Part shown: piece after piece, positions 1 to 27,781 of the stretch
How the letters are laid out: every line of letters begins with the position of its first letter
Numbering within the stretch: position 1 is the first letter of the stretch
NCBI GenBank assembly: GCA_001029675.1
Contig: CP011210.1
Location: 1,014,891 to 1,049,888, forward strand
Direction of reading: 5' to 3'
Source: Candidatus Beckwithbacteria bacterium GW2011_GWC1_49_16
Lineage (GTDB): Bacteria > Patescibacteriota > Microgenomatia > UBA1400 > CG1-02-47-37
Length of the DNA stretch: 34,998 nt
The notes under the pieces: model-generated
What the model was told of the DNA's origin: nothing
The model's database searches: none
Seen by the model: the letters and a program-made list of their open reading frames with translations, nothing else
Made by a program: the position numbers and the translations under genes

Positions 1-553
1 GTTTGGCTTTTAGCCCCAAGCGGGTCAATTGGCCGACCAGGTGGTCTCTTTTGGGCACCAGAGCGGTGGCGGCTTTTTGGATGATGTAGTCTTTGTCAAA
101 GGGGAGGCCTTTTGATTTTCTGACTACAGAAGAAAGGGTGGAGCTGACGCCCAGTTCCAAAGCCGAAAAAGGGATGACGATGTAGAATTTTTTATCCAAA
201 ACGTCGTTTTCCTTAACGGTTTGGGTGATAAAGTCGCGGTATTTTACCAGCTGGCCTTTGAGTAACGGGTTTTTGATTTTTTGCTCCTGGGTGTTTAAAA
301 GGGCCAGATAGCTTTGGATGTTTTTTTTCTGGGAGTGGATTAAGATTTGTACCGGAAAAGTCAACGAGTTTAACATTCCGGCATAAGCGTAGATGGTGGC
401 GTCTTGTTCGCCTTCGGACAGAAGCGAAAAGTTGACGGCGGTGGTTTGAAGAATTAGGCAACAAGAGCCGTCTTTTAAAATCACCAGGTCGTTTCTGATG
501 TCCTCGATGTCGAGGTGGTCTTGGGTGCTGGCTTTGATGGGGGCAGGGGGCAT
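1..553 (-). CDS. TraC/VirB4-associated protein of CPR T4SS-like loci (3' end beyond the window edge)
   Basis: Not in the ORF track. Manual translation from ATG at 553 gives MPPAPIKASTQDHLDIEDIRNDLVILKDGSCCLILQTTAVNFSLLSEGEQDATIYAYAGMLNSLTFPVQILI..., open to position 1. It starts 1 bp after the PrgI stop. The STQ.HL.I..I / VNF.L.S..EQ / LNSL.FP.QI pattern is typical of the protein found between PrgI and the VirB4 ATPase in CPR genomes. Confidence 0.75.
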   Translation of the reverse strand, partial: MPPAPIKASTQDHLDIEDIRNDLVILKDGSCCLILQTTAVNFSLLSEGEQDATIYAYAGMLNSLTFPVQILIHSQKKNIQSYLALLNTQEQKIKNPLLKGQLVKYRDFITQTVKENDVLDKKFYIVIPFSALELGVSSTLSSVVRKSKGLPFDKDYIIQKAATALVPKRDHLVGQLTRLGLKAK

Positions 554-554
554 G

Positions 555-1730
555 TTATTGGGCTTGAATTTTTAATGGCGGTATTACTTCGCCTTTGGCT
601 TCGAGTTTGATTATAGCAAAGGCGTGGTCAGGGTGGTCGGCCTCGATCTGGTAGATGCCGTCGGGTAAGGGGGTGGCGATAAAAAATTGGCCGAGCTTAT
701 TTGATTTTAGAGCCCGGACGGGGTGACCCTGGTTGTCTTTTATTTCCAAAATGACGTTGGGGGCGATTTTGCCAAGTTTGTCTAAAGTGACACCGGCCAG
801 CAGGTTGGGTTTTTCCGGGGTTTGGGGCAGGATGACGTCTTTGGCAAAAGTAGGAGTAGTGGTGGGTTGAGGTTGCGGCGCTGGTCCCGACCCGACTGTA
901 GTCGTGGCCGTGGATCCTCGGTCCGGCTTCTGCCGAGACCGGGGAGGGTTTTTAGCCGGAAGTTTTTTAACAGGTTTAGCTGGTTTGGCGGGAGCCGCCG
1001 CCGTGGAAGCGGTAGGGGGTTTGGTGGTTGCTGGGGGCGGAGGAATTGGAGTGGGGGCCCCGACGTTGCGGTCGGGGTAAACAGGCATGGCGGCCGTTTT
1101 TGGCTCGGCGGGGGCCTGGTAAAGGCTGGCGTGGGGTAGTAGGCACATTTGCGGGTGCAAAAGCTTTCGGACTCGAACGCCTTTAAGGCCGGGTTTGACC
1201 GGAGTTTGGGGTTGGCCGGGGTGGCTCGGTTCTGCCGGCGACGATGGCGGCAGGCCCAGGGCGCCAAACAAACTGGCGATGTGTTGGAGGTACTTTTTTT
1301 CGGCTTGTTCGAAGCTGGTTTCCGGAGTTTGGGGCAGGGTTTTTAAGTATTCAGCTAGTTTTTCCGGGTGGCCGCGTAAAGTCCCAGTGTCTACTGGGAC
1401 ACGCGGTAAACCCTTACTTGGGGCAAAGAAGTCGAGTTTTTTGGGTTTTTGGCGCCATAAGTATTGGGTGGGGGCGTAGATGGAGCGGAAGAAGTTAATA
1501 ATCCACTGGTCAAGCGGCCGGTCTTCGATAGGTAAAAAAGCCAGGGCAAAGCCAAAAAAGGCTAAGATCGGTCCCAAGGTCCAGCGGAGAAGCAGGTTCC
1601 AGCTGGAGTTGAAAACAAGGTAGGCAGTAACGACGCCGGAAGCCAGCTCCAAAAACTGCTTCAAGGTCATGTCACCTACCAACCGGAATTGGTAGGTGGT
1701 GATGTTTTGGGGGACGGGGTGTTGTTCCAT
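555..1730 (-). CDS. prgI: PrgI-family membrane protein with Pro-rich linker and C-terminal carboxypeptidase-regulatory-like beta-sandwich
   Basis: N-terminus MEQHPVPQNITTYQFRLVGDMTLKQF, two TM helices and 'IEDRPLDQWIINFF' match the PrgI pattern. A P/T/A-rich linker leads to 'GVTLDKLGKIAPNVILEIKD..G..VRALKSNKLGQF'. Start moved from 1739 to 1730 because TATAAT lies 7 nt upstream of that ATG. Confidence 0.8.
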   Translation of the reverse strand: MEQHPVPQNITTYQFRLVGDMTLKQFLELASGVVTAYLVFNSSWNLLLRWTLGPILAFFGFALAFLPIEDRPLDQWIINFFRSIYAPTQYLWRQKPKKLDFFAPSKGLPRVPVDTGTLRGHPEKLAEYLKTLPQTPETSFEQAEKKYLQHIASLFGALGLPPSSPAEPSHPGQPQTPVKPGLKGVRVRKLLHPQMCLLPHASLYQAPAEPKTAAMPVYPDRNVGAPTPIPPPPATTKPPTASTAAAPAKPAKPVKKLPAKNPPRSRQKPDRGSTATTTVGSGPAPQPQPTTTPTFAKDVILPQTPEKPNLLAGVTLDKLGKIAPNVILEIKDNQGHPVRALKSNKLGQFFIATPLPDGIYQIEADHPDHAFAIIKLEAKGEVIPPLKIQAQ

Positions 1731-1737
1731 TAGAGTC

Positions 1738-1743
1738 ATTATA
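1738..1743 (-). promoter_or_regulatory. -10 box (TATAAT) of a probable leaderless prgI transcript
   Basis: Minus strand reads TATAAT-gactcta-ATG(1730). Confidence 0.55.
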
Positions 1744-1760
1744 GAGTTGATTAAGGGAAG

Positions 1761-1789
1761 ATGACAAGGAACGGGTTGAGTGATAGATT
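1761..1789 (+). promoter_or_regulatory. sigma70-type promoter for the plus-strand orphan block, probably leaderless
   Basis: ATGACA(1761-1766)-17 nt-TAGATT(1784-1789) with TGn extension, then 7 nt to ATG 1797. Confidence 0.5.
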
Positions 1790-1796
1790 AATATAT

Positions 1797-3257
1797 ATGG
1801 ATGCCGTAGGAGTAGAGTTGCCACCAGGAAGAGGCCCGGATATTAAAGAGAAAATAACTAGAACTGCCCCGCGGAGCAGAGTAGGAATATTGGCTCAAGC
1901 CTTGTTTGCTAAAGAATCAGAACACCTGACTTTAATCAAAAGACAAAAAGGTAAAGAAAAAGGCGGAGTTAATTTAGAACGTGTTGGGGCCAGCAAATTA
2001 GTGATAGGACCCATGGTGGCGGAGATGGATCGACTAAAAAACGTCGCCAGAGCCGAAAAACAGGATAAAAGTGACCAACTAGTCAGGAAGGGCGGAGCAT
2101 ACGAGATGGTAACCCGGAATTCTGGTGAGGGAGTCGTTTTATCTAATGAAGCCACGGTGGCGCTTGACGCCTGGACTCCAGAAGGGATGGCGACTTGGTT
2201 TAACCAGGCTCTTAGCAGTTACCAGATGCCTCCTAGACTGGTGGATGTGTGGGGATACCCTGGAGAGTGGAAGTTTGACTTCTCAGCTTTCTCTAAAGGG
2301 GGGGGTATGAAGGTTGAGATCAACGGACAGGAGTTAAAGCTTAGTTATAAAGAGGCAACCAATTTAAGACGGGTGTTTTACACCAGGCTGGGAGTGGCTT
2401 TGGCTCACTATATTTTTGCCGCCCGGGGAGAAGTAGAAGGGGCCATCGCCCAGAGTTATAAAAAAACTCTAGAACGTTTAACTGAAGGGGGAGAATTAAG
2501 TTGGTGGAACTTAAACCAGAATGCGGCCCTGACAGCCGGGATTCAATGGCCGGACCTACCCGGTGACTGGTTAACTTGCGACCCCGTTCAACTTAAGGAT
2601 TGGAAAGAGTTGGCTTCGACCAGTCGTTCGTTCGGCAACAAGGCCGACAAGTTATTAAAACCTAAAGGCGAGCAGGCTAAAAAAGAAATTAGACCAGTGG
2701 CCTATACTAAAAAACAACAGCGCCAAGCTGGAAGAAAACTTTTGGAGCTGTTGGCAGTTTACCCAGAAGATTTTAAGAGCGTTTTAGAAGAAGTTAGGGT
2801 CGGTGACACTCCCGAATCAAAAGGCATGGATTGGTTAGTGGAGATGAAACCAGAAGTCTTGAGGGTTCTTTCGGAAGGGCGTTTAGCTCAATTAAAACAG
2901 GAGGTGGCCAAGTTGTCTGGGTCAGAAGCGGTGGAGAAACTGGATGAAGAGTTAACCAGGAGGGTCGAGCTGTTGCGTTCTTTAGCGAATGACCTTGAGT
3001 CGATTTCGACTGACCTGGAGGATAAAAAGCTTCAACTTCAGTTTGCTGAGGCTCAAAGGGAAAGAGGGGCGTTGGAAAGTGAGCTTAATAAAAAAAAGAG
3101 CGGGAAATACAAAGATGTAGAAGTTGACGTAGAGGATTTAGAGGCTCAAATTGCTGGCGTTGACCGAGAGATTTCTCGGTTAGGGCAAAGACTAGAGCAA
3201 CCAAGAGAGGAAGAGGTGGAGAAGGATAAAAGCAGCAGGAAGGATATGAGTTTTTAA
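1797..3257 (+). CDS. Hypothetical protein with C-terminal coiled coil
   Basis: Long ORF (track start 1761; 1797 preferred from promoter spacing). The last ~130 aa are E/K/L heptad-rich. No family recognised. Confidence 0.75.
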   Translation: MDAVGVELPPGRGPDIKEKITRTAPRSRVGILAQALFAKESEHLTLIKRQKGKEKGGVNLERVGASKLVIGPMVAEMDRLKNVARAEKQDKSDQLVRKGGAYEMVTRNSGEGVVLSNEATVALDAWTPEGMATWFNQALSSYQMPPRLVDVWGYPGEWKFDFSAFSKGGGMKVEINGQELKLSYKEATNLRRVFYTRLGVALAHYIFAARGEVEGAIAQSYKKTLERLTEGGELSWWNLNQNAALTAGIQWPDLPGDWLTCDPVQLKDWKELASTSRSFGNKADKLLKPKGEQAKKEIRPVAYTKKQQRQAGRKLLELLAVYPEDFKSVLEEVRVGDTPESKGMDWLVEMKPEVLRVLSEGRLAQLKQEVAKLSGSEAVEKLDEELTRRVELLRSLANDLESISTDLEDKKLQLQFAEAQRERGALESELNKKKSGKYKDVEVDVEDLEAQIAGVDREISRLGQRLEQPREEEVEKDKSSRKDMSF

Positions 3258-3265
3258 AAATTAAT

Positions 3266-6200
3266 ATGGCAGACGAAGCTAAAGAAATACAAATTTTAAG
3301 AGAAACTAATAAAGTGTTGGCCGATGAAGCTGAATTGTGGGGTAGTTACGAAAAATTGTTGGCCGATCCAACAGCCAATCCAGCCGGATTCAAGCGCTAT
3401 CTGAACGGAGTTAACCAGTTGTTTCGGGCGTGGCAACTAGATAGTTATTCAGAAGGGGAAACCGGGATGACCGGGCCAGACTTATACTGGGTAAAACCAG
3501 AACAGGGGTTGACGCGGCAAGAATTTGAGCGTCAGTTGAAGGAAGACTTAGAGATGGAAGAGGAAAAAATAAAAGAGGTGACCGAAACTATGTTTGGGCC
3601 CAAGGAGGGCAAAGAGGCCTTAACAGAAACAGAAATCAAAGAATTTAACAGTGATCAACTAGGAAAATTTTTAAAAGAGTTAACTGGTTTAGACGTTGTC
3701 AGCCAAGGATCTAAAAAGGACCAATTGGGTTTAGACGAAGTTTGGAAAGATTATATTGGTAATAGGATAAAGGCGATAAGACAAATAGAACAGCCGAGTA
3801 AAGACAGGCAGGAGTTGGTGGGCAGGTGGCTTCAATTCTTTGAGGCAGCCAAGGTTGAAGCCGAAGGGGGTAGCTATAAGCATATGAAAAGACTACAAGA
3901 GTATTTAGGTATTGGCAGATCACCAGTCGACCAATCAAATTGGCAGCAGCGGGCAGAGTTAGTTAAAAAACAGGTTGACAAGGGTGTGACCCGAGAAGAA
4001 GAACTGGTTCGGGAAATAGACGGGTACTTAAGGAAGCCATTACAAGGAGGAAGGCACACAGAAAAATTGATAAGAGAATTTAAACAGAGTGTTGAGTTAA
4101 AAGGAGAGGCGGCGACCCCAGAAGAAAAGCAGTATCTTAGTTTTTTAAATACTCGTTTCGATCTACAGCAAAGATTTCCCCCCAAAACTTTTATAGAAAA
4201 AATAAAACAGGTTTTTCCCAACCGTTGGCTAAAAGGTGAGAACTTAACCGAAAGATTAGATAGAGCAGCAGAATTGTTTTATTGGGCTGATATTGATCCG
4301 GAAAGCTTGTTAACCGGAGAGGGGGCAAAAAGCCTTGATGGTCAGCATATTTTCCTTGCCCGAAATCGGCAGACGTGGCCGTTGATGCAGTTTTTACTGA
4401 CGCAGGCACAAGAAAGAAAAGTTACCCTGGTGAGGAAGTTCGTCGACGAACTGGTGGCAAAGGGGAGAATCGCTTTTGAGGTTAAGGGTAGCGATATTAT
4501 CATGGCCAATATTAGCCGAGAAGCGGGCGGGGTGGGTCCTGATAGTGAGGGTTTGGCGGTGCAGGATCTGTTAGATGAGATCAGCAAGGCTAAAGAGATG
4601 CAGCAAAGGCACAAGCTAGGGAATATAGATTACGACTGGTTAGAGCTTTTGGCAAGGCTGACGACAGCAAACGAAATTAATAAACAGATGATTGACGATT
4701 TTGGTCTTTATCGGGACGAAAGCAGGCTTCCTGACGTAGGCACTTTGGTTGACGGAAAAACTATTGGTCGGCTTCTGGCTGACGAGGGGTTTGTACAGAT
4801 CATCAACGAAGAGGTTTGGTATCCCCAAAAAGACCCCCTTACCGGGGAAATTTCCCTAAAGAAATACGATCAAGTTATAGAAGAGGCCACAAGAGAGCTT
4901 CAGGGGAAATACCCTGGTTTCAAAATTAAAGCGGCGGGGATGTTTTTAGAACAGGCTAGTTCGGTGAGAGCCAGTTATTGGAACTTAATCAAAATGAAAG
5001 ATTTGGAAGATTATTACTCAAGAAACATGGGAATTTTAGGCTCCGGTCTGCCAATTGTTGAGTTACCGGATGGTTGGACTGATTCGGAAAAAAGGGTTGG
5101 CAAGTCATTTTTAAAACTAATGTCGGTGTTTTCTTTGCAGGACAGGTCTTGGAACTTGATGTTTCAAAGAAGTGTTTTAAACCCCGAAGAGATAGAAGCG
5201 GGCGTGAGAAGACATGGAGTGCCTTACGTAACGATGAAAAAATGGGATTGGGAAAAAGGGGGCGCGATTTTAGATTTAGAAGAAAGCCTTGATCAAGACA
5301 AGGTTTTGGAGGTAGCTGACTTAGCGGGCAAGGAAGTTGGGGTGGACGCAGAGGCGGTACTAGATAAAGTAAAAATTTTAGCCATAAGAAGAGAGCAGCT
5401 TAAATGGCAGGTATTTTCGTGGTTGACCGGCAAGCATGGCAAAAGAGTGATCGGGGAAAATGTGTTTATCGGCGAAGAAGGGGGGACGAGGCTGCCTTTT
5501 GGTTATACCCAGAAAGACCATCGGGAGAGGTTGCTTAGTTTTTTGAGAGACGAGAAGGAAAAGGGTAGGGCCAACTTAGAGAAAGTTGATTTTGACACAG
5601 ACTTTATCGATGGCGGATGGTTGGAAGCAACCTTGATGGACATTTTTAGGCATGAGTATAGGGAGGGGGAAAAGACGAAAGAGCTAAGAAACCACTTAGT
5701 TGCTTGGGTGGGCATGGGATTAAGGGCCTCAAGACAGGAAGCCCATGATAAAAAGGCGGAAATTCCAGGGAAGCGAGAGCGGCTAAGAAGTGCCAGAGAA
5801 GAAGCGGGCAATGGCAACTTTACCGTCTTAAGCCAAATGGTCAGCGACCACAAGTTTGCCGACAAAGAAGTTGACGTTGGCAATTGGCAGAGACAAGCTA
5901 GGGAGTTGGAAGATTTATTTAACAGGATTGAGCAAGGTTCGGAAATAACTTTGGATGATGTCAGAATTGCCGGACTTGAGGCATTTACTTTGGGGCTAGC
6001 GTATTTGTTGCGTCCGGAAAACGAGGCAACGTTAAGGCAGTTGGGGCTAGACAGCGAGGCGGGAAGAAGATGGTTGGAGCAACTTCAATCCGACCCCCGC
6101 GAAGCAGACGAGGCGACGAAATTGGAACAAGAAAGGTTCGTTCGGGCAGTAAAACTTGAATTAACCCTTGAAGACATAACCACTTTTGGCATCGGTAGTA

Positions 6201-9634: not shown

Positions 9635-9635
9635 A

Positions 9636-16302: not shown

Positions 16303-17001
16303 TTAGCGGCGGCGAGGGGTGAGGAATCTAAGCGGCAGGAGAAGAGCGAGATTGAGAATAAGGATAAGGGCGAAAAGAGAAGCTAAAAGCCAAAACAGGT
16401 TGGCGGTGAATTGGGGGATGGCGGCTGGTAGGTTTAAGTTGGCGAGCTTGAAAACGCCGAGGAGAATTAAGATTAAAACCACGGGGACGCCGGCGGCTTG
16501 AAGGTCGGAGGGGGAGGAGAACATGGTGTTGGCGATGGCAAAGACCAAGTAAAGGGTGAGGGCGAGGCGGTAGAAGGGGAGAAAGGCAGAAAGGGTTTGG
16601 AGTTGGGACAGGAGGTTTTCGGCCAGATTCAGATTTAGCCCCACACGGATTAAAAGGTAGAGGACAATTAGGCCGACGACAAAGGGCGCGGTGCCGATGA
16701 GGGTGAGGCGGATCGGGTCGGTGGCGGCGATTTGAGCCGAGCCCAAGCGGAGCTCCCCCTCACGAAGCTGGGGTTTTAAGGATAGCTCGCCGGTGGGGAC
16801 GCGCAGGAGTTCAGCAGATAAAATATGGGAGAATTCGTGCAAAAAAACTCCGGGCAAAAGGAAGAAAAACAGCAAATTGACGGTGGCTTCCTGGGAGTGA
16901 GTCAGGCGCATCAAGAGCTTGATCAAGTGGCCGATGAGAGCGCGGGAGGAAAGATAAAGGAGAATGGCGGTGAGGATGAAGGCGAGAAGAGATAAAAGCA
17001 T
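16303..17001 (-). CDS. Membrane zinc metallopeptidase, M50-like (HExxH)
   Basis: 'LPGVFLHEFSHILSAELL', 'LIGTAPF' and 'NTMFSSPSD' (candidate third-ligand Asp), with several TM helices. Confidence 0.75.
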   Translation of the reverse strand: MLLSLLAFILTAILLYLSSRALIGHLIKLLMRLTHSQEATVNLLFFFLLPGVFLHEFSHILSAELLRVPTGELSLKPQLREGELRLGSAQIAATDPIRLTLIGTAPFVVGLIVLYLLIRVGLNLNLAENLLSQLQTLSAFLPFYRLALTLYLVFAIANTMFSSPSDLQAAGVPVVLILILLGVFKLANLNLPAAIPQFTANLFWLLASLFALILILNLALLLPLRFLTPRRR

Positions 17002-17992: not shown

Positions 17993-18466
17993 TTATTGGG
18001 TTTTGATGGCGGAGAGAAAATCGTTCGGTTCTTGGAGCTTAAAAAAAGGCCGGGTCCAGGCGAGGCGGGTGCCGATTAAAGTCAGCAGAGTAACCAGGCC
18101 GAAGAGGAAGGGTTTTAAAGTTTTTAAAAAATAGAGGCTGGCGTAAGCCGCACCCGATAAAATCGACAAAAAGGAAAAGGCAATAAGGCCGGAGACAGTG
18201 GTCGACAGGGTGGACTGATTAAGGCCGGTTAGGGTCTGGATGATGCCCGGGCCGGAAGGTTCTCTCCACCTCGCAGGAGTCGGCTCCGGCTGGAAGCCGG
18301 CCGTCACCTCCGAGGAGGATCCAGTTGTTTGGGGAGAGAGTTGGCCGACCATGGATTTTAATTTTTGCAGCTGGTCGGCGGCGACCCTAACCTTGCCGGT
18401 ACCCTGGCAGGTGGGGCAGCCAACGCCGTTACAATTTGGGCAAGTTAGGATCTGATAATCTGCCAT
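17993..18466 (-). CDS. Small membrane protein with N-terminal DnaJ-type zinc finger (2x CxxCxGxG)
   Basis: CPNCNGVG-CPTCQGTG at the N-terminus, two C-terminal TM helices, no J-domain. Confidence 0.75.
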   Translation of the reverse strand: MADYQILTCPNCNGVGCPTCQGTGKVRVAADQLQKLKSMVGQLSPQTTGSSSEVTAGFQPEPTPARWREPSGPGIIQTLTGLNQSTLSTTVSGLIAFSFLSILSGAAYASLYFLKTLKPFLFGLVTLLTLIGTRLAWTRPFFKLQEPNDFLSAIKTQ

Positions 18467-18598: not shown

Positions 18599-20815
<2,217 letters not shown>

Positions 20816-20829: not shown

Positions 20830-21102
20830 CTAATTTCTAAGTAATATTTGATAAGAAAAAAGAATAATGCCTACGGCAACGGACAGAAGAATGGCGCGTT
20901 TGATTAAGAAAAAACGCTTCAAAAACTTTCTGGTTTTAAGGTCGATAAAGTCGGGGAGGTTGAAGACAATCGGTTGGTCTTCCTGGAGGGCGTAGACGCC
21001 GTGGCCGTCGCAGGTTTGGCAGGCTTGACCGCCGGTTTGGCCCGTTCCCTGGCAGGCCTCGCAAGTGACGACGGCGATCGGTAGGGCAGGCTCGAAACTC
21101 AT
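20830..21102 (-). CDS. Small DnaJ-type zinc-finger protein with C-terminal membrane anchor
   Basis: CEACQGTG...CQTCDGHG, then a basic patch and TM helix AILLSVAVGIILFSYQILL. Confidence 0.72.
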   Translation of the reverse strand: MSFEPALPIAVVTCEACQGTGQTGGQACQTCDGHGVYALQEDQPIVFNLPDFIDLKTRKFLKRFFLIKRAILLSVAVGIILFSYQILLRN

Positions 21103-21108
21103 GAGTTT

Positions 21109-21117
21109 ATGATAGCA
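21109..21117 (-). promoter_or_regulatory. Extended -10 (TGcTATCAT) heading the Zn-finger/Clp unit, leaderless
   Basis: Minus strand reads TGCTATCAT-aaactc-ATG(21102). Confidence 0.55.
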
Positions 21118-21123
21118 CAGAAG

Positions 21124-22173
21124 CTAGGGGGTGGCGGGGAGATAGGCGGTGATTTCGGCTGTGTTACCAGTTTCTAGCTGGGCGGTGCCGGTGAGCTGAA
21201 AGACGGGTAAAAGCATCCCTTGATTGGCTTGGGCTTGGTAGCCGAGGTTTAGGTGTTGGTAATCAGCGGAGGTAACTTTAGTAGCGGTGGTAGGATAGGC
21301 GCGGGGGCCGGTTTTTAATAAAGTGACGGTGGGGAGGCCGGCTTGAATGTCTTGACTAACTTGGTCGGCGGTTTTTAAAGGATAGGTAGTGGTTTTGAGT
21401 TCGCCCGGATTGGTTAGGTAAGTAGAGTAAAGCAGGGCGGGGAGTTGATAGTCAACGATAAAGATGTTGCCGGCGCTGGTGACGGAAATAGCGATGGGAG
21501 CGTTATCGAGGTTGGTAGAAAAAAGCGGCAGGCGGTTTAAGGTGGGGAAAAAGGAAAATTGGTAAGTGTCGGCAAGAGCAGGATCAGCGACCGGTTCTAG
21601 CTGACCTTCATGGCTTTGGTAGTAGCTGGTTTGGTGGGGCGTATCTTGATCCATCAGGCGGTGGTCGGCCAGCCAAGTTTTGGCTATGGTGAGAGCATCT
21701 GGTTCTATCACCGGAGTAGAGTCGGAAAATTCAGAGGCAGAGACTTTTATGTAAAACTGGCCGGTTTGGAGATTGAGGCTTAGGGTGCTGGTGCCTTTTT
21801 TCCAGACAAGGTGGGGAACGGAGTTAAAAACCATTTCCTGGGGGGGTTCGATAAAGTTTAAGCTTTGGGCCATGGGGTTAAAAAAGTTTTGCAGGTCGAG
21901 GGAGGAGGCAGAATGTTGATAGACGGCGATGCTGGTTTGATCGCTTGGCGGGGGAGCTTGAAGTTGGTTTTGCCCAGGGCGAGAGAATTGATAAATGGGG
22001 TTATATGATGGTGGTGGCAGAAGTCCTTGTTGACTGGGTTTGGATTGGCGCAGGGCCGGAAGCAAAATAACCAAGGCTATCAGGAGAACTCCCAAACCGA
22101 TACCGAGGGCGGTTTTGGGTTTGGCTTTGAGCCAAGAGGTAAGCTGGTTCATGGTGTCAGATAATTTTAGCAT
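21124..22173 (-). CDS. Single-pass membrane-anchored extracytoplasmic protein (possibly YycH/YycI-like fold)
   Basis: N-terminal TM helix (ALGIGLGVLLIALVILLPAL) and C-terminal 'LLPVFQLTG...AYLPA'. The start is uncertain (22182, 22173 or 22152), and the fold call is weak. Confidence 0.65.
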   Translation of the reverse strand: MLKLSDTMNQLTSWLKAKPKTALGIGLGVLLIALVILLPALRQSKPSQQGLLPPPSYNPIYQFSRPGQNQLQAPPPSDQTSIAVYQHSASSLDLQNFFNPMAQSLNFIEPPQEMVFNSVPHLVWKKGTSTLSLNLQTGQFYIKVSASEFSDSTPVIEPDALTIAKTWLADHRLMDQDTPHQTSYYQSHEGQLEPVADPALADTYQFSFFPTLNRLPLFSTNLDNAPIAISVTSAGNIFIVDYQLPALLYSTYLTNPGELKTTTYPLKTADQVSQDIQAGLPTVTLLKTGPRAYPTTATKVTSADYQHLNLGYQAQANQGMLLPVFQLTGTAQLETGNTAEITAYLPATP

Positions 22174-24560
22174 CAGTTGCATAAGGGTTCTCCGGTGTTA
22201 CAGGAGCAGCCTGGGATGGCGGCGCAAGGGTCGGCGGTCAAGCCAGAGTAGTAGAAGTTGTAATAAGCACCGCCTTGGGATAGGCCGAGGTGGAGGTGAG
22301 ATTCAGAGCTTTGACCAGTATTGTCTTGGATGCCGACTTGGGTGGCGGTATCGACCTGCTGGCCGACGCTGACAAACTGGCCGTCGGAGAAGCTGTCCAT
22401 GTGGCCATAGAGGGTAAACGAGCCGTTGCAGTGGTCGATGATGACGCAGGCGCCAAAGTCGCCGCAGCCATTGGGCGAGCCATTGGTATAGTAGATTTGC
22501 CCGGAGCCGGCGGCGTAGACAGGTAAGGTGAAGGGAACATTGTCTTTAGCGTTGGGGCCACCCGGGTCCATGTCCAGGCCGCCGTGGCAGTAGGCACCGC
22601 GTTCTTCTTTATAGCAGGAGGTAAGGTAGGCGTTGTCGACGTCAAAAGCGTAGGGCCAGTCGAGCCAGGTTCCTGACGGGTTGGGGCCGCCGCTGCAGGT
22701 GGGCGGAGTCGGGCTGCCTCCGCCTGGAGGCGGGCTGCCTCCGCCAGGCGGAGAAGAGGCGCCAGGAGTTTGGGCCAAATCGCCGGCGGTGCCAAAGCCG
22801 CACTGGTCGCTGAAGGGTTGATAGGCTTGGCCGGTAACGAAGGGTTGGAGTTTAGCCAGGATGCGTTCCTTTTGGCAATGAATGTAGCCTAAGTATTTGT
22901 AGTAGAATTTGGCTGGTTTGGGCGGTTCGCGGTAGCCGGCTTCGGCCCTGCCGGGGGTAAAGTCATACTCAATGTTGGTTTCGGTGGGGTTGCCGACTCC
23001 AAGCCAGTTTTCCGGAGGCGGGTTGTCTTCAAGTAAAGGTTTAAAGATGCCAAAAAGAGCTCCGGGGCCGGTAACTAAGCGAGTCATGAGAGTGTCTAGA
23101 AACGGGGTGTAGGTTTTAAAGTAAGTCGGATCATAGCGGAGGTCTTGTTTGATAAGGCAACCGGTGTAGTCAATGCCGGCGATTCCTGCTATTGGGTTGA
23201 CGCACCTTTCGCACGAGTAGAGGTCACCGCAGGCAGAAGGTTGACTAGCCGGGCCGACGTATTCGGGGTTATCAATAGTTTTATACACCAGAGTGGTGAC
23301 GACGTCTTCTTGGGCAAAGTCACCCGACGAGGGGATTTGGGTATTGCCGGGATCGCAGACCGGGCCGAGGCCATCCCATTGAGACTGGTTTTCATCGGAA
23401 ATGATCCACCAGGGTTCCTCTGATTTAAGATACCAAGGGGCGGGGGTGAACCACTGGTCTGCCAGTTGGGGATCTTGGTCGTAATCGTGGGTTTCTTGAG
23501 GAGAAAGTAAAAAAGCCAAGGAGCTGCCGACTTCATAAGCGCGGGACAGATGAGGAAAAATTACGTCCTTGGTGTCGGCGTTGCTGATCTGACCCGGTTC
23601 GTCGATGACCTCGATGAAGCCCTTGGTGTCTTCGCGGGTAAACATGGGTACATACTCCCAGAGTTTAAACCATTTGCCGTTGTCTTTTTGCTGCCACTCG
23701 GCAGAGGCAGAGGCGTAGGCTTGAGCCGTGTCAAACTCTTCCGGCAATGGCGCCCAGTTTTTGTCATAGTCGTTGAGATAAATTTCTTGCCCGGCGCCGT
23801 AAGGAGCAACCTCGTTATTAACAGGGTTCCAATAACCGACTAAGTAGTCGTGGACTTCTTGGGTAGCGGGCTCAAAGCCGTAGGGGTTGTCGTTCAAGTC
23901 AAATTGGCCGGTGGCGCGTTTAATCAGGGCGCGGCGGAGGCGGTCTTGATAGGTTTTGGGGGCAAGCTCTCTGAAGACTCCTAAACGGGAAGGGATAAAG
24001 GCATTATAGATAGTGTTAAGAATGGGGTTGCCGGGGACGATGGGGTATTGTTGGCGCTGAAAATCTTCCTGAAAAGCGGGGTCGGCAGGGTCTTCGGCAA
24101 ACTCTTCATAGTAGGCGCGGCCTTCAAAGTAGTCAAGAAGATAGCGTCTGATTTTTTCGTCGTTGGGTAGAGTAAAGTCGTACTTGCTGTCGTCGGTGAT
24201 CGATAAAAGCGGAGTGACAAAACTTTGAAAGTTAGAAACGAGGATGCCGGCGGCGGTGAGCTTTTGGCTGCGGCGATCGACGACGTTAAAAGTTGGGGGG
24301 CGACCGACGACGGCGTTTACCGGCGGCGGCTGGACGATAGTCGGGCGTTGGGCGCAGTAGAGAGTCAGCGTGGGGTCGTCGATGGTTTTGGCTTCTTCTT
24401 CGGCAACCAACTCGAATGGGTTGGGCCGAAGAGGGTGGGGGTTTTGAGATGGGGTTTGGGCGGAGACGGAGCCACTAAAAACCAAAAACAAAAGACCAAA
24501 TAAAAATAGTATTGTGGGTATCAGCCAGAGGCTGATCGTCCTGTGGACGAGGCGGGACAT
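22173..24560 (-). CDS. Exported protein with C-terminal M23 (LytM-like) peptidase domain
   Basis: Signal peptide ending VSA-Q, a GGGSPPP linker, and M23 motifs HGGLD, YGHM and HLHL. Start 24560 preferred over 24599, which overlaps the upstream gene. Confidence 0.85.
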   Translation of the reverse strand: MSRLVHRTISLWLIPTILFLFGLLFLVFSGSVSAQTPSQNPHPLRPNPFELVAEEEAKTIDDPTLTLYCAQRPTIVQPPPVNAVVGRPPTFNVVDRRSQKLTAAGILVSNFQSFVTPLLSITDDSKYDFTLPNDEKIRRYLLDYFEGRAYYEEFAEDPADPAFQEDFQRQQYPIVPGNPILNTIYNAFIPSRLGVFRELAPKTYQDRLRRALIKRATGQFDLNDNPYGFEPATQEVHDYLVGYWNPVNNEVAPYGAGQEIYLNDYDKNWAPLPEEFDTAQAYASASAEWQQKDNGKWFKLWEYVPMFTREDTKGFIEVIDEPGQISNADTKDVIFPHLSRAYEVGSSLAFLLSPQETHDYDQDPQLADQWFTPAPWYLKSEEPWWIISDENQSQWDGLGPVCDPGNTQIPSSGDFAQEDVVTTLVYKTIDNPEYVGPASQPSACGDLYSCERCVNPIAGIAGIDYTGCLIKQDLRYDPTYFKTYTPFLDTLMTRLVTGPGALFGIFKPLLEDNPPPENWLGVGNPTETNIEYDFTPGRAEAGYREPPKPAKFYYKYLGYIHCQKERILAKLQPFVTGQAYQPFSDQCGFGTAGDLAQTPGASSPPGGGSPPPGGGSPTPPTCSGGPNPSGTWLDWPYAFDVDNAYLTSCYKEERGAYCHGGLDMDPGGPNAKDNVPFTLPVYAAGSGQIYYTNGSPNGCGDFGACVIIDHCNGSFTLYGHMDSFSDGQFVSVGQQVDTATQVGIQDNTGQSSESHLHLGLSQGGAYYNFYYSGLTADPCAAIPGCSCNTGEPLCN

Positions 24561-24582
24561 GATGCTTCTAGTATATAGAAGT

Positions 24583-24975
24583 TTATTGGGGAACGGCAAA
24601 CTGTAATAGGTCCAGGCCAGTGATGGTGTTTAAAAGCCTAAAGATAAACCAGACGCCGACGGTGGCGGCAATTCCGATGATAGCGCCGGTGATGATTGAT
24701 TGAGCTTTTTGAGTTTGTTTGGGGTCGCCGGCGGAAGTTAAGTATTGAAAACCCCCGACGATCAAAACGACAAAGGCGGCGACTCCGGCCAGGGGGATGA
24801 TAAGGCGGAGGAGGTTGGCGACGATTTGCTCAAAACATTGAAGAGTAGCAGCGCCTTGCTCGATACAATCTTGAGGCCAAGGTTCGGTTTGGGCGTGGGC
24901 CGCAGTAGCGGCAGATCGTAGATAGTAGATCGTCGACAGTAGAAAGAAGAGAAGTTTTTGGGGGCGTTTGGGCAT
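24583..24975 (-). CDS. VirB2/TrbC-like pilin (T4SS pilin family), copy 9 in transcription order
   Basis: Signal peptide AHA-Q, a Cys pair, and two TM helices around 'GGFQYLTSAGDPKQTQKAQSIITGAIIG'. Confidence 0.85.
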   Translation of the reverse strand: MPKRPQKLLFFLLSTIYYLRSAATAAHAQTEPWPQDCIEQGAATLQCFEQIVANLLRLIIPLAGVAAFVVLIVGGFQYLTSAGDPKQTQKAQSIITGAIIGIAATVGVWFIFRLLNTITGLDLLQFAVPQ

Positions 24976-24978
24976 GGG

Positions 24979-25311
24979 CTAGCCGCCGGCAGAGGGGATG
25001 TTGAAGGAGAAGACATCAATGCCGAAAAAGAAGCCGATGACTTTCATCAGGGCCCAGGCGGCGGCGACGATGCCTAAACCCACCAAGGCCATGGTGATGC
25101 GGTCACGGGCTGCCTGGGTTTGTTGTTTGTCGCCTCCGGACAGAATCCACTGGATGCCGCCCCAAACCAGGAAAGCAAAGGTTAAAATGGCGGCGATGAT
25201 CATAGCCACTTGGATTAAGCCGGAAAGGAGTTTGCTGATGTCCTTGATACCGGTGGGGGGTTCCTGGATGGTGATGGCTTCCTGGGCGCGGGCGATAAAG
25301 TTAAACATCAT
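24979..25311 (-). CDS. VirB2/TrbC-like pilin, copy 8 (candidate major pilin)
   Basis: 'WGGIQWILSGGDKQQTQAARDRITMALVGL'. Start at ATG 25311 or 25308, directly after its own promoter. Confidence 0.85.
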   Translation of the reverse strand: MMFNFIARAQEAITIQEPPTGIKDISKLLSGLIQVAMIIAAILTFAFLVWGGIQWILSGGDKQQTQAARDRITMALVGLGIVAAAWALMKVIGFFFGIDVFSFNIPSAGG

Positions 25312-25315
25312 TACT

Positions 25316-25364
25316 ATTATGAAAACGTTGCTCGAGTTTGTCAATCCCGGTGGCCACAGGGATT
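25316..25364 (-). promoter_or_regulatory. Near-consensus sigma70 promoter with adjacent 22-bp palindrome
   Basis: TTGACA(25344-25339)-17 nt-CATAAT(25321-25316)-7 nt-ATG(25308). The palindrome AATCCCGGTGGCCACAGGGATT (25343-25364) has one mismatched pair. Confidence 0.65.
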
Positions 25365-25367
25365 AGG

Positions 25368-25700
25368 CTAGGGGGAAGGGATGATAAAGTCTAACGGGCC
25401 TTGGGCAGACTCGGATAGGCCTAAGAAAAAGATAATTAGGCGCCAGATGATCCAGACGGCGGCTAAAATGACCAGGCCGAAGGTGGAGCTGGTGATTTTG
25501 GATTTGGCGGATTTGGCGCTTTCTTGGTTGCCGCCGGAGGTAATGAACTCGACGGCGCCCCAAATGAGGTAGAAGAGGGCGGCGATGGAACCGACGAAAA
25601 GGGCGACTTGGATGAGGTTTTGGAGGAATTGACCTAAGGAATCGAATTTAAAAAAATTAAAACCTTGGATTTGGTGTCTGATGTTGGTGTTGACTGCCAT
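25368..25700 (-). CDS. VirB2/TrbC-like pilin, copy 7
   Basis: 'WGAVEFITSGGNQESAKSAKSKITSSTFGL' between two TM helices. Confidence 0.85.
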   Translation of the reverse strand: MAVNTNIRHQIQGFNFFKFDSLGQFLQNLIQVALFVGSIAALFYLIWGAVEFITSGGNQESAKSAKSKITSSTFGLVILAAVWIIWRLIIFFLGLSESAQGPLDFIIPSP

Positions 25701-25703
25701 AGT

Positions 25704-26012
25704 TTATAGCGTGGGCCAAGGAGGATTTAGTATGTCTAAACCAGTGAAAAGACTGACGAGTTGAATGATAAGATATGAGAGCACCAGGATGGCCAATCCA
25801 AAGATACCGTTGCCCATTTTTTCTTTGGCGCGTTTGAGGCGCTCTTGGTTGGAGCCGGACAAAATCCAGTCGAGAGCCCCCCAGATAAGGTTTAAGAGGA
25901 CGGCGAGCCCGCCGACGATGACTAGAACTTGCCAGATAATGGCTAAATAGCGGGCAAAGGCAACGTCGCCTTGAGTGCCGATTTTGGGGATAGCTTTGTT
26001 GACGATGGCCAT
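25704..26012 (-). CDS. VirB2/TrbC-like pilin, copy 6
   Basis: 'WGALDWILSGSNQERLKRAKEKMGNGIFGL'. Confidence 0.83.
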   Translation of the reverse strand: MAIVNKAIPKIGTQGDVAFARYLAIIWQVLVIVGGLAVLLNLIWGALDWILSGSNQERLKRAKEKMGNGIFGLAILVLSYLIIQLVSLFTGLDILNPPWPTL

Positions 26013-26040
26013 GTCTATCTAATAGTATATAGCATTAATT

Positions 26041-26412
26041 TTATTCTGGTTTGAGACTGTTAATCAGCCTTTCAAGGTTGATAATGTCTAGACCGGTGAC
26101 GGCGCTTAAGATAAAGGTGATGGCGTAGGCGGCGACGAGCACGGCCAAGCCGGCGATAGCAGTGCTGATTTGCTTTTTAGCTTTGTCGAGTTGTTCGGGG
26201 TTGCCGGAAGAGGTGACCCAGGTGACGGCGCCGATGACAAACCAGGTTAGAAAAGCCAGGCCGCCAAAAATGGTAAAGACGGTGATGATGTTGCTAATAA
26301 TGGCGGTAAAGCGGTTTTCCGGGTTGGCTCCGGGCGCGGCGGAGAAGCCGGAAAGAAAGCCTTGGATTTGGCCGAGGGTTTGGGCAGAGTCGGCGAGTAG
26401 TTTAGGGTCCAT
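26041..26412 (-). CDS. VirB2/TrbC-like pilin, copy 5
   Basis: 'IGAVTWVTSSGNPEQLDKAKKQISTAIAGL'. Start 26412 gives an 11-bp overlap with the upstream gene. Confidence 0.83.
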   Translation of the reverse strand: MDPKLLADSAQTLGQIQGFLSGFSAAPGANPENRFTAIISNIITVFTIFGGLAFLTWFVIGAVTWVTSSGNPEQLDKAKKQISTAIAGLAVLVAAYAITFILSAVTGLDIINLERLINSLKPE

Positions 26413-26752
26413 AGATAGTGGGCGAGATAATGGCGGTGGCGCTGCCAAAGAATATCAAGCCGATGACGGCAGCGGCAACGGTTGAAGCGGCAATAAGCAG
26501 TAGTCCTAGCATCGAGATCCAGATGCGCGAAGAGGCTTTTTTGGCGACCTCCGGGTTTCCGGCAGAGCCGATATATTGAATACCTGATATGGCGAAGTTA
26601 ATTACGGCCAAAAGCCCGCCGCCATAAATGGCGACCCTGAAAATGTTATTTAGAAGCAGGATGAGACCTTGAGGGTCAGAGCCGTAAGTTTCTACTCCCG
26701 GAGGGGGTTCTAAGTTGGAGCCGAAAAAATCAGAAAGGCCGGGAACGGGCAT
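26402..26752 (-). CDS. VirB2/TrbC-like pilin, copy 4
   Basis: 'SGIQYIGSAGNPEVAKKASSRIWISMLGL'. Confidence 0.83.
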   Translation of the reverse strand: MPVPGLSDFFGSNLEPPPGVETYGSDPQGLILLLNNIFRVAIYGGGLLAVINFAISGIQYIGSAGNPEVAKKASSRIWISMLGLLLIAASTVAAAVIGLIFFGSATAIISPTIYGP

Positions 26753-26754
26753 AG

Positions 26755-27108
26755 TTAAAAGATTAAGTTATTAATAAATTCGGCGGGCTCGGCAAAGGGA
26801 ATGCCGACGAGTTGGGCTAAAACAAAAGCCATGGGATAGGCTAAGACGGAAACGGTGAGGCCGATTAGGGCGCTGGTGATCATGGCCCGGGCTTTTTGGG
26901 CCTTTTGGGCTTCACCGCCGGCGGTGATCCAGTTGATGGCGCCGAGCATAAAATAAATTAAAAAAACCACCCCGGCTACCAAGGAGATGATACCGATAAG
27001 GTTGGAAAAGATATTAGAAATGTTGCCGGCCAGTCCAGATCCGGAAAAGCTATAGCCTTGGGGGTTTCTCGAGAAAAAATCGCCGATTGATTTGGGTTCT
27101 GAAGCCAT
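26755..27108 (-). CDS. VirB2/TrbC-like pilin, copy 3
   Basis: 'LGAINWITAGGEAQKAQKARAMITSALIGL'. Confidence 0.85.
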   Translation of the reverse strand: MASEPKSIGDFFSRNPQGYSFSGSGLAGNISNIFSNLIGIISLVAGVVFLIYFMLGAINWITAGGEAQKAQKARAMITSALIGLTVSVLAYPMAFVLAQLVGIPFAEPAEFINNLIF

Positions 27109-27109
27109 A

Positions 27110-27442
27110 TTATTTTAGCTTGAATAAAGTGGGGCTAAGCAGGCTAGCGGCGTCGCCGTAGAGCACAAAGCCGACCAGGCCGGCAATAATAAAGGCGGCG
27201 GCGATGACCACGAGACCGATAATCGACTGGAGAATTTTGTTGCCGGCGGCGGCCAACCTTTGGGGGTCGCCCGAAGCAGACATATATTGGTAACCGGCGA
27301 TAATGAAGTTGATTAAGGTGAAAATGCCAGCCAAAGTGATGATTAAAGCCACTAAGTTGTTTAGAAATGAAACCAGACCGCCCTCCAGAAGTTTACCGTA
27401 AGGGTTTTGACTGGTCTCGAGTTGACCGACGACGTTTGCCAT
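27110..27442 (-). CDS. VirB2/TrbC-like pilin, copy 2
   Basis: 'AGYQYMSASGDPQRLAAAGNKILQSIIGL'. Confidence 0.85.
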   Translation of the reverse strand: MANVVGQLETSQNPYGKLLEGGLVSFLNNLVALIITLAGIFTLINFIIAGYQYMSASGDPQRLAAAGNKILQSIIGLVVIAAAFIIAGLVGFVLYGDAASLLSPTLFKLK

Positions 27443-27445
27443 AAG

Positions 27446-27781
27446 TTATAAACCTTGAATTAAGTTGATACCGGTTAAAAATTCGATAATGCGGATGACC
27501 CAAAAGGAGGAAAAAAGAATTAAAAAGCCGATGACGGCAGAGGAGAGGGTTTTGGAGGAGTTTTTTAATTTTTCGGCGTTGCCGGCGTTTAAGATCATTC
27601 CCAGTCCACCGACGACGATAAAGATAAATAAGATGATGCCGGCAATGACAAAAACGTTTCTTAAAACCACAGACAAAACAGCAAACAAGCCCTCCTTGGT
27701 ATAGGCTGTGCCGGCGATAGGGATGGGATTGCCGCCAGGGTCGGTGCCAAGAGAGAATTCGTCCTTGAAGATTACTGGCAT
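27446..27781 (-). CDS. VirB2/TrbC-like pilin, copy 1
   Basis: 'GGLGMILNAGNAEKLKNSSKTLSSAVIGF'. Start 27781 (MPVIF) preferred because it leaves room for the divergent promoters. Confidence 0.82.
   Translation of the reverse strand: MPVIFKDEFSLGTDPGGNPIPIAGTAYTKEGLFAVLSVVLRNVFVIAGIILFIFIVVGGLGMILNAGNAEKLKNSSKTLSSAVIGFLILFSSFWVIRIIEFLTGINLIQGL

Follow-up and report, generated by a model that had tools for sequence, protein, structure and literature searches.

We analyzed a stretch of 34,998 bases (hereafter the window, numbered from its first base) that closes the single 1,049,888-base contig of Candidatus Beckwithbacteria bacterium GW2011_GWC1_49_16 (G000:C1:1014891-1049888). The genome (1.05 Mb, class Microgenomatia) is 99.73% complete with 0.12% contamination. 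The window carries a locus resembling a type IV secretion system (T4SS), in which a gene for an Hsp100/Clp ATPase lies between genes for two zinc-finger proteins. Genes were taken from a listing of open reading frames (ORFs) combined with Pfam and NCBIfam family scans, with PHROGs applied to ten locus proteins. Synteny was assessed by local tblastn of all locus proteins against up to 40 kb around virB4 from ten relatives (G002 was compared later), and gene occurrence was counted in 40 order-level relatives (41 genomes for VirB4) and 300 class-level genomes. Genomes are designated below by G and families by f.

A preliminary description of the window had depicted a co-oriented T4SS-like run with many accessory genes, and every gene it named was recovered in its place by the ORF listing and family scans. 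The co-orientation holds for the minus-strand genes but not throughout, as these are interrupted by three tightly packed plus-strand genes that the description left unmentioned (positions 1761 to 11105, 9.3 kb, encoding 498, 2122 and about 490 amino acids). Since gaps elsewhere in the locus are all 132 bases or less, the stretch from the ninth pilin gene, pil9, through the gene for a 467-amino acid protein (18 genes, 16.7 kb) looks, from spacing only, like a single transcription unit. The housekeeping flanks consist of dnaN-dnaA on one side, followed by rnpA-yidC-jag, and of a sigma factor of the extracytoplasmic function (ECF) type and the mevalonate pathway on the other. Three genomes of the same family, G008, G006 and G002, carry the whole layout: dnaA-dnaN, VirB4-TrsD-PrgI, opposite-strand large genes, the 467-residue protein, a 1239-residue protein, an HExxH protein, zinc finger-Clp-zinc finger, (a 352-residue protein), an M23 peptidase, pil1-pil9 and the ECF sigma factor. 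The genes of the putative secretion core, with the wall hydrolase and its partner, are the following:

Positions 1 to 553, minus strand: TrsD-like protein, resembling the N-terminal part of VirB4, 232 amino acids (NF041427 TrsD, E 1.2e-5; NF045975 VirB4_plasma, E 1.1e-5).
Positions 555 to 1739, minus strand: PrgI/VirB3-like membrane protein, 394 amino acids, with a proline-rich linker and a C-terminal domain (PF12666, E 1.4e-5, residues 8-91).
Positions 11102 to 12505, minus strand: candidate divergent VirB6-like polytopic membrane protein, 467 amino acids, with a signal peptide and about 5-6 transmembrane segments (from fold searches).
Positions 21124 to 22182, minus strand: p352, an N-terminally anchored ectodomain protein of 352 amino acids with a predicted YycH/YycI-like fold (AlphaFold2 model, pLDDT 78.8, pTM 0.70).
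Positions 22173 to 24599, minus strand: membrane-anchored M23 peptidoglycan endopeptidase, 808 amino acids, with an N-terminal transmembrane segment (PF01551, E 9.4e-15, residues 692-781).
Positions 24583 to 27814, minus strand: tandem array of nine VirB2-like pilin genes (PF18895), each product with two transmembrane segments, as listed next.
Positions 24583 to 24975, minus strand: pil1, VirB2-like pilin.
Positions 24979 to 25344, minus strand: pil2, VirB2-like pilin.
Positions 25368 to 25700, minus strand: pil3, VirB2-like pilin.
Positions 25704 to 26012, minus strand: pil4, VirB2-like pilin.
Positions 26041 to 26448, minus strand: pil5, VirB2-like pilin.
Positions 26402 to 26752, minus strand: pil6, VirB2-like pilin.
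Positions 26755 to 27108, minus strand: pil7, VirB2-like pilin.
Positions 27110 to 27442, minus strand: pil8, VirB2-like pilin.
Positions 27446 to 27814, minus strand: pil9, VirB2-like pilin.

The gene at the edge of the window had been called TraC-like, and a look for VirB4 beyond position 1 had been advised. The ORF exists, as the TrsD-like gene, which extends 145 bases past position 1 and overlaps its neighbour by 4 bases; the true VirB4 is this next gene, outside the window (628 amino acids, G000:C1:1012862-1014748), ending 142 bases before it and lying beside dnaN. VirB4 matches P-loop ATPase profiles (PF19044, E 4.3e-29; PF12846, E 7.7e-10) and is the sole PF19044 match in the genome. 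It is present in 38 of the 41 order-level genomes at 58-83% identity, as suits a fixed chromosomal gene. Orthologues of the TrsD-like protein (45-71% identical) adjoin VirB4 in relatives, and the PrgI-like gene adjoins the TrsD-like gene in every fetched relative locus reaching that point.

Some of the related motor genes are themselves interrupted. The VirB4 proteins of G002 (L038:12281-16048) and G098 (L050:2708-6253) contain an in-frame insertion of about 600 amino acids at residue ~289 that matches Pfam Intein_splicing and LAGLIDADG_3, i.e. a homing-endonuclease intein within the T4SS motor, and the VirB4 proteins of G017 and G120 are likewise intein-bearing, judged by layout. Inteins favour conserved, indispensable genes.

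The 467-residue protein had no match in Pfam, and a profile built from six orthologues returned no match among PDB sequences. Pfam TrbL/VirB6 was matched by one of the six members of the family (E 0.005), and 250 homologues were obtained (E <=0.001), with no precomputed Pfam domain in the 120 that were listed. The protein was modelled with AlphaFold2 (71 sequences, pLDDT 77.0, pTM 0.66). Foldseek, run against 350,542 PDB chains, placed TrwI/VirB6 of R388 at all of ranks 1-5 (E 0.11-0.53, probability 0.57-0.96, TM score on the target 0.33-0.43). VIA-align, run against 48,161 chains, gave DotA of the Legionella Dot/Icm protochannel as best match (Z 11.5, 278 residues aligned) and TrwI/VirB6 as second (Z 10.4, 227/261 aligned), the next match having a Z of 6.2. 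For a helical membrane protein, neither of these scores is convincing by itself. Because both aligners single out T4SS channel proteins among all PDB structures, and the gene belongs to a T4SS locus, we nonetheless find the case persuasive that the modelled protein represents a very divergent VirB6, recognizable only by its fold. The family would then provide a VirB6 candidate for Microgenomatia, a class in which sequence profiles found few and VirB6 was called 'scarce' (PMC12102498, in the part of the text available).

The T4SS_pilin profile (PF18895) was matched above the Pfam cut-off (26.6 bits) by seven of the nine pilins, with pil6 (17.8 bits) and pil7 (25.6 bits) falling below it, and all nine align as paralogues with two transmembrane segments (identity 16-37%, mean 24%). 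The array lies about 25 kb from virB4. One-to-one orthologues of the pilins, at 39-85% identity, occur in identical order in G008, G006, G002 and G009, and we infer from this that the nine pilins are old paralogues, each of them retained and their order fixed. The kept order is more in line with pilins that have separate roles in a heteromeric structure than with a recent amplification for variation, and simple variation of antigens or host range would be the less fitting explanation; host-range variation is the suggestion made in the available part of PMC12102498, from which this array differs in that its members correspond one-to-one and in order across genera.

The prediction that the locus has its own wall hydrolase is borne out by the M23 protein. 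M23 proteins are found in all relative loci examined, and we propose that the protein encoded here takes the VirB1 role. Its gene overlaps that of p352 by 10 bases, and p352 or its relatives adjoin the M23 gene in G009, G012, G120, G019, G023 and G025. In a Foldseek search, the p352 model matched 5coz (E 5.8e-7) and YycI (2o3o, E 1.6e-5) with a probability of 1.0, at TM scores of only 0.28-0.41. In Bacillus, YycH and YycI regulate WalK, a regulator of wall hydrolases, so that a reasonable guess, by analogy, is that p352 may control or position the M23 hydrolase. We also considered p352 as the missing VirB8. Of the locus ORFs, p352 and the 467-residue protein were folded; p352 has the N-terminal transmembrane anchor expected of VirB8/PrgL but not the NTF2-like domain, its model matching YycI/YycH-type folds instead, with no VirB8 among the matches listed.

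This assembly of genes corresponds closely to the T4SS described for Patescibacteria. According to the available part of Quinonero-Coronel et al. 2025 (PMC12102498), these systems have a VirB4 clade that is sister or related to MPF-FATA, with TrsD as the commonest companion, together with PrgI/VirB3 and VirB6; their VirB2-like pilins form arrays of 2-11 genes (mean identity 25%), relaxases are almost never found with them, and they often lie near dnaA/dnaN. The locus shares VirB4, a TrsD-like protein, PrgI/VirB3, VirB6 and tandem pilins (nine, with the mean identity given above), as well as a peptidase-type wall hydrolase and a site by dnaA/dnaN, and like them it has neither a relaxase nor a linked coupling protein. 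It differs from the published Patescibacteria systems in the presence of the Clp/zinc-finger genes, the 1239-residue protein, the HExxH membrane protein and a Fic protein, and in being split by a block of giant leaderless genes on the opposite strand. The likeness extends to MPF-FATA systems (pCF10 Prg/Pcf, pGO1 Trs and pIP501 Tra; comparison from the available part of PMC12102498), which have PrgI-, TrsD-, VirB4/PrgJ- and VirB6/PrgH-like proteins, a large anchored wall hydrolase and a monoderm architecture without VirB7/9/10. Unlike these, the locus has no relaxase and no PcfC/VirD4 match, nor a match to a PrgB-type adhesin family, it is chromosomal and fixed rather than mobile, and it encodes VirB2-like pilins, which Gram-positive systems lack (PMC12102498, same part).

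In Southlakia epibionticum, the T4SS (SEML1_0006-0019) has pilins, no coupling protein or relaxase, and is essential for epibiotic growth (Wang et al. 2023, PMC10633639, as far as the available text goes); according to PMC12857230 (available text), the Patescibacteria T4SS is the first found to be indispensable to the cell that encodes it. By analogy, the machine studied here would build a heteromeric pilus or channel on a host cell, and would export proteins or make contact rather than transfer DNA.

A different reading of the same genes is that they form an integrative and conjugative element (ICE), or the remnant of one, whose DNA-processing genes have diverged too far to be recognized. The descent of the VirB4 clade from monoderm conjugation systems (PMC12102498, available part) would fit this idea, as would the several large ORFs of the locus to which no function can be assigned, and the same part of that paper leaves open 'very different relaxases'. 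As the preliminary description had stated, the ORFs of the window have no relaxase, integrase or transposase family match, and housekeeping genes abut the locus on both sides. Genome-wide, we found no match to the relaxase families PF03432, PF01076, PF02486 and PF08751 (MOBH, MOBC and MOBQ models were not searched genome-wide) or to the coupling-protein families PF02534 and PF12696. The genome has only two tyrosine recombinases, one at 89 kb and the other at 349 kb. No repeat of at least 16 bases, direct or inverted, is common to the two flanks, and a search of the window for tRNA genes yielded none. Against an ICE also stand the fixed site next to dnaA-dnaN, where the flanking genes are the same in different families, and the VirB4 protein itself, with the identities across the order given above and an intein in some relatives. 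On the grounds that no relaxase or coupling protein exceeds the cut-off, that the integrases are distant and that att-like repeats are missing, we conclude that, as judged from its sequence, the locus is not an ICE, and consider a disguised one extremely unlikely.

Our preferred explanation is that the locus is a known kind of machine, the chromosomal, non-conjugative, MPF-FATA-derived T4SS or pilus system of the candidate phyla radiation (CPR)/Patescibacteria, an assignment in which we have high confidence. The proposal of a domesticated T4SS-like machine rather than an ICE is thus upheld, with VirB4 present, no relaxase or type IV coupling protein over cut-off, recombinases at a distance and a syntenic core layout. 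Several observations weigh against the assignment. The NCBIfam scores of the TrsD-like protein are far under cut-off (25 bits for NF041427, with a cut-off of 200), and that of the PrgI-like protein for PF12666 is 26.0 bits against a curated cut-off of 27. The Foldseek E-values that point to VirB6 (at least 0.11) are not significant alone, and helical bundles also reach middling VIA-align Z scores by chance. PF10412 gave two P-loop-only matches, one at 86 kb and one at 928 kb, whose scores of 16-17 bits do not reach the cut-off (20.5), so that a very divergent coupling ATPase is possible. Lastly, the function is extrapolated from a different class, the Saccharimonadia. The core system is already published (PMC12102498 and PMC10633639, in the parts available). 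What is new here is the fold-level VirB6 assignment, the Clp/zinc-finger genes and their strict linkage, the pairing of M23 with a YycI-like protein, and a hypervariable slot of giant genes.

The Clp gene and its two neighbours, which we refer to as the cassette, are arranged as follows:

Positions 17993 to 18466, minus strand: p157, a zinc-finger protein of 157 amino acids (CxxCxGxGCxxC) with two C-terminal transmembrane segments, its EPxDFLxAIK tail conserved; partner on the downstream side of the Clp gene.
Positions 18599 to 20815, minus strand: Hsp100/Clp ATPase, 738 amino acids, with two AAA+ modules (PF07724, E 1.6e-65).
Positions 20830 to 21102, minus strand: p90, a tail-anchored zinc-finger protein of 90 amino acids (CxxCxGxG...CxxC); upstream partner of the Clp gene (PF00684 DnaJ_CXXCXGXG, E 2e-5, under cut-off).

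The genome holds three Hsp100 genes: a ClpB-like gene at 486 kb, a ClpC-like gene at 779 kb and the locus copy. Aligned with its two paralogues, the locus Clp has both Walker A/B motifs and both pore-loop tyrosines intact; the ~120-residue M-domain of ClpB is missing, and the protein has a short N-domain of its own. Its NCBIfam scores are under cut-off for ClpB (TIGR03346, 791.6 bits vs. 1232), for ClpV (TIGR03345, 635.8 vs. 884.95) and for ClpA. It therefore falls outside each class considered, namely ClpB (no M-domain), ClpA/ClpC-ClpP (no ClpP) and ClpV (no orthology). Indeed, PF00574 (ClpP) had no match in this nearly complete genome, while the same search was positive in 12 of 14 control genomes, and no ClpS-like protein was seen among the family-scan matches of the locus proteins. 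Of the 'Clp module' put forward initially, the Clp/Hsp100 protein stands and the protease part does not, since the genome has no ClpP and zinc-finger proteins flank the gene instead. The cysteines of p90 are invariant across 11 sequences, as are the cysteines and glycines of p157 across 15; p90 also accounts for the only two matches, both weak and to zinc fingers, that PHROGs gave for the ten locus proteins.

Two features of the Hsp100 genes may be recorded in passing. In the paralogue at G000:C1:777461-779911 (810 amino acids), the N-terminus is extended by a hydrophobic stretch and the first Walker B motif is degenerate (DG for DE). The locus Clp gene contains, in frame within its D2 module, an element resembling repetitive extragenic palindromes (REP-like; positions 18962 to 19034), whose two 13-nt arms, AAGGTCWGACCTT, are 100% complementary and 47 nt apart. 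This insertion adds about 25 residues that have no counterpart in Clp orthologues, and the genome contains just 4 copies of the 13-mer.

Full-length orthologues of the locus Clp, N-domain included (54-77% identity), occur in 11 of the 40 order-level relatives, distributed over families f1 (9/13), f2 (1/1) and f16 (1/1), with none in the other 16 families. At class level they occur in four of the 300 genomes, each a member of f51, a family from a different order. Fourteen of these 15 genomes were fetched, G139 not being included. In all 14, from four families and two orders, the Clp gene has genes of the T4SS locus as its neighbours, and in six (G002, G006, G008, G014, G098 and G120) the stretch also includes VirB4. 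The Clp gene is flanked by p157 in 14/14 cases and by p90 in 13/14, the single miss being at a contig end. The position of the cassette within the locus differs from family to family: between the pair of M23 and 352-residue protein genes and the HExxH gene in f1, directly beside PrgI in f2, between pil1 and VirB6 in f16, and directly after VirB4 in f51. That the trio stays in the T4SS locus while its position changes four times suggests a functional tie to the T4SS, and this retention through rearrangement is the strongest evidence for one. A chaperone as part of the machine, as first suggested, is thus well supported by synteny.

The core layout is syntenic in order-level relatives. The cassette was not found in 29 of the 40 order-level relatives, including all 3 genomes of genus g2 in the same family. 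It is also absent from the complete loci of four other families (G019, G023, G025 and G027), which keep VirB4-TrsD-PrgI, the pair of 352-like and M23 genes, the 467-residue family and the pilins. The T4SS must therefore work without the cassette, and these absences count against a functional tie. So does the fact that the Biopython neighbour-joining tree in which ten locus Clp proteins group apart from the genome's two other paralogues is without support values.

A second, more distant type of Clp that also lacks the M-domain occurs in families f44, f45 and f61. These proteins have 800-950 amino acids with long N-terminal regions, are 43-50% identical to the locus Clp and group apart from it in the neighbour-joining tree, again without support values. 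Their modules lie away from VirB4, whereas in the window the Clp cassette and VirB4 share one cluster. Weak pilin-like or VirB6-like matches were found 2.5-3 kb from the distant-type Clp gene in seven of 12 class-level loci. In these 12 loci a motif scan detected no zinc-finger ORF beside the Clp gene.

The block that splits the locus lies between the PrgI-like and VirB6-like genes and contains three genes:

Positions 1761 to 3257, plus strand: leaderless protein of 498 amino acids (p498), rich in glutamate and lysine, no transmembrane segment, no family; first gene of the block.
Positions 3266 to 9634, plus strand: leaderless giant of 2122 amino acids (p2122), without cysteine, one hydrophobic stretch near the C-terminus, no family.
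Positions 9636 to 11105, plus strand: protein of about 490 amino acids (p500) with two transmembrane segments; convergent with the VirB6-like gene, the two stops overlapping by 4 bases.

The start of the p498 gene is 21 bases from that of PrgI. The p498 protein gave only a chance-level SMC coiled-coil match in Pfam, NCBIfam and PHROGs. The p2122 protein has no signal peptide and no match in Pfam, NCBIfam, PHROGs or PDB sequences; a search of 5.8 billion clusters gave a single homologue (38% identity, 2184 amino acids) and one of 1.84 billion representatives gave four (1720-2184 amino acids), none of the four with a Pfam domain. A twin-arginine-like motif in p500 (TIGR01409, E 0.0033, residues 468-487; window positions 11040 to 11100) is at the C-terminal end, not the N-terminal one, and may simply be a membrane anchor.

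Every relative locus has large ORFs opposite to the T4SS strand in the same place, abutting the VirB6 gene and encoding leaderless proteins rich in glutamate and lysine. Their sizes are 1490 + 452 amino acids in G008, 1474 + 563 in G006, 939 + 658 in G027, 1210 in G023, 1143 in G025 and 446 + 963 in G019. The giants of G008 and G006 are 44% identical and form the only pair with detectable similarity. We looked for homology between p2122, p498 or p500 and the genes in the same position of relatives and rejected it: blastp gave none at 1e-3, and profiles of p2122 with P0135 against the G008 and G006 giants gave a best E of 0.29. A fixed position combined with unconstrained sequence fits fast-evolving host-interaction proteins and repeated unrelated insertion equally well. 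We consider the block the best candidate for cargo, better than Fic, although it is rather unlikely that the giant proteins are T4SS substrates. Two observations argue against such a role. The giants carry no feature that would mark them for secretion, and the G+C content of the block is lower (0.43-0.48 vs. 0.50-0.58), which, together with the absence of homologues, also fits repeated unrelated insertions.

Three further accessory genes lie between the VirB6-like gene and the cassette:

Positions 12524 to 16243, minus strand: p1239, a lineage-specific membrane protein of 1239 amino acids with a proline-rich N-terminus, a transmembrane segment near residue 430 and a cluster of transmembrane segments at 847-948.
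Positions 16303 to 17001, minus strand: p232, a polytopic protein of 232 amino acids with an LPGxxLHExSH motif, candidate intramembrane metalloprotease (six-orthologue alignment).
Positions 17007 to 17948, minus strand: Fic-domain protein, 313 amino acids (PF02661, E 7e-25, 88.1 bits vs. a cut-off of 24).

The p1239 protein evolves fast (24-38% identity) and is found only with the Clp cassette, in five of the 40 relatives (all f1) and in family f51; its orthologue in G072 is fused to a C-terminal M23 peptidase. The HExxH protein p232 is likewise a companion of the cassette in some lineages. We considered it as a second VirB6 and rejected it, as hhalign against the VirB6-like family gave a probability of 0.3%, a PDB profile search gave only a chance match (E 0.42) and there was no usable ESM Atlas match. 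The protease claimed at first, p232, retains as its sole basis an HExxH motif that is invariant in 6/6 orthologues; no match to Pfam M50 (PF02163) was found. A later N..FSSPSDLQ stretch is also invariant, which may resemble the NxxPxxxxDG motif of S2P, and there is a weak match to the NCBIfam YydH/LiaK metalloproteases (E 0.0077). An M50-like identity would be plausible. As for Fic, its active-site motif HxFx(D/E)GNGRxxR is intact (HPFLDGNGRTAR, residues 180-191), and orthologues (at least 67% identity) occur in only three of the 40 relatives, G012, G008 and G028; the G008 copy is elsewhere in the locus and those of G012 and G028 are on short contigs. The earlier view of Fic as cargo is weak on this distribution, and the protein is a patchy add-on, possibly an effector or an unrelated insertion.

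These distributions raise the question of whether the accessory genes (the cassette, p1239, p232, Fic and the giants) are simply unrelated neighbours or insertions in a permissive locus close to the origin. The scarcity of the cassette, p1239 and Fic among relatives is as this would predict, and so is the lack of common sequence between the giant genes of different lineages. The loci of relatives also contain genes for an IS200-like Y1 transposase in G010 (L016:11308-11934; G013 has a copy with 81% identity) and for a nucleotidyltransferase of the Pol-beta type in G008 (L014:7584-8201), showing, along with the REP-like element inside the Clp gene, that insertions are tolerated. A chance neighbourhood would not, however, predict that the trio is kept in the T4SS locus in all 14 genomes at four positions. 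Nor would it readily account for the locus Clp being a third Hsp100 paralogue beside the ClpB-like and ClpC-like genes elsewhere, for related Clp genes of the M-domain-less type lying near pilin- or VirB6-like ORFs, or for the fusion of a p1239 orthologue to an M23 domain. We therefore regard unrelated insertion as possible but the less probable account, and think that the balance tips towards the cassette being functionally part of the T4SS. A known T4SS carrying a lineage-specific Clp layer is, as a whole, the best explanation of the locus, and we hold it to be likely.

How the cassette would act can be sketched in outline. It could be a membrane-recruited unfoldase that serves the T4SS. In one version, the Hsp100 would act on large substrates without a leader, unfolding them for a VirD4-less channel; in another, it would extract or recycle pilins or other membrane subunits, in the way that ClpV recycles the sheath of the type VI secretion system (T6SS). 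Even taken together, these two mechanisms are doubtful. The most specific form, in which the two zinc-finger proteins tether the Hsp100 hexamer at the channel and this membrane-docked unfoldase replaces the coupling protein and threads the giants into a VirB4/VirB6 translocon leading to a host bacterium, we consider quite improbable. If true, it would mean a secretion system-dedicated Hsp100 outside the T6SS and a new route of substrate recruitment for T4SS. It bears on the question of how the Patescibacteria T4SS recruits substrates without a coupling protein, for which the locus would supply an unfoldase with membrane tethers, a VirB6 candidate and candidate giant substrates. Should all of these links fail, what is left is an ordinary representative of the published system.

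ClpV is a dedicated recycler of T6SS machine subunits, those of the sheath. Like ClpV (TssH), the locus Clp is an Hsp100 paralogue in a secretion locus, ClpP-independent and with an N-domain of its own. It is not an orthologue (its score being under cut-off), has no M-domain and belongs to another secretion system, so that the likeness is functional only. No T6SS family, including a sheath-like client, was matched in the family scans of the locus, and ClpV loci are not known to encode membrane-anchored zinc-finger proteins. In the literature searched, we found no paper linking Clp/Hsp100 to the Patescibacteria T4SS. The terms Clp, Fic, chaperone and AAA do not occur in the main text of PMC12102498, nor in PMC10633639 or PMC12857230, as far as the text of each is available, and Clp, AAA_2, PF07724, PF02661 and PF10431 do not occur in the available supplementary text of the first; its Tables S3/S4 (families near virB4) may already record AAA_2/Clp or Fic.

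The direction of transport could also be the reverse of the one proposed, with the locus encoding an import machine, either for DNA or nucleotide uptake in the manner of ComB or as a conduit for host material. Helicobacter ComB lacks a relaxase and a coupling protein, and the locus likewise has no match to either. Patescibacteria depend on host metabolites, and in the class ABY1, T4SS genes lie beside comF, recG and radA (PMC12102498, available part), both of which would suit import. No competence genes, however, are present in or beside the locus. Furthermore, deletion of comEC in Southlakia abolished competence and kept viability, whereas its T4SS is essential (PMC12857230, available part), and an unfoldase and leaderless giants would fit export better. 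We accordingly give import a low probability and retain export or host contact as the more plausible function.

At its far end, the pilin array adjoins a divergent gene pair:

Positions 27823 to 28705, plus strand: ECF-type sigma factor (190 amino acids; PF04542, PF08281) and a membrane protein of 130 amino acids.

This pair begins 8 bases from pil9 and adjoins the pilin array in seven of the nine relative loci that reach this end (G008, G006, G002, G009, G028, G023 and G019); it was not seen in the stretches from G025 and G027. The ECF sigma factor and small membrane protein are a candidate dedicated regulator pair. Two further genes of the T4SS_pilin type, encoding 197 and 206 amino acids with longer N-terminal parts, lie at G000:C1:1516-2468, across the contig junction, where they adjoin uppS and a SpoIID-like gene, with the mevalonate operon between them and the main array. 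A similar extra pilin pair is present in relatives, at a distance of about 6 kb from the sigma factor on its far side.

A scan of the window with Rfam returned no family at the gathering score. When the genome is divided into bins of 25 kb, all of them have a positive GC skew on the plus strand, which in the window is independent of gene strand. The skew is about 0.2-0.27 in the part that extends from roughly 1,000 kb across 0 as far as 440 kb, and about 0.05-0.14 elsewhere, a strong genome-wide offset of G over C being superimposed on a replication-linked switch in skew.

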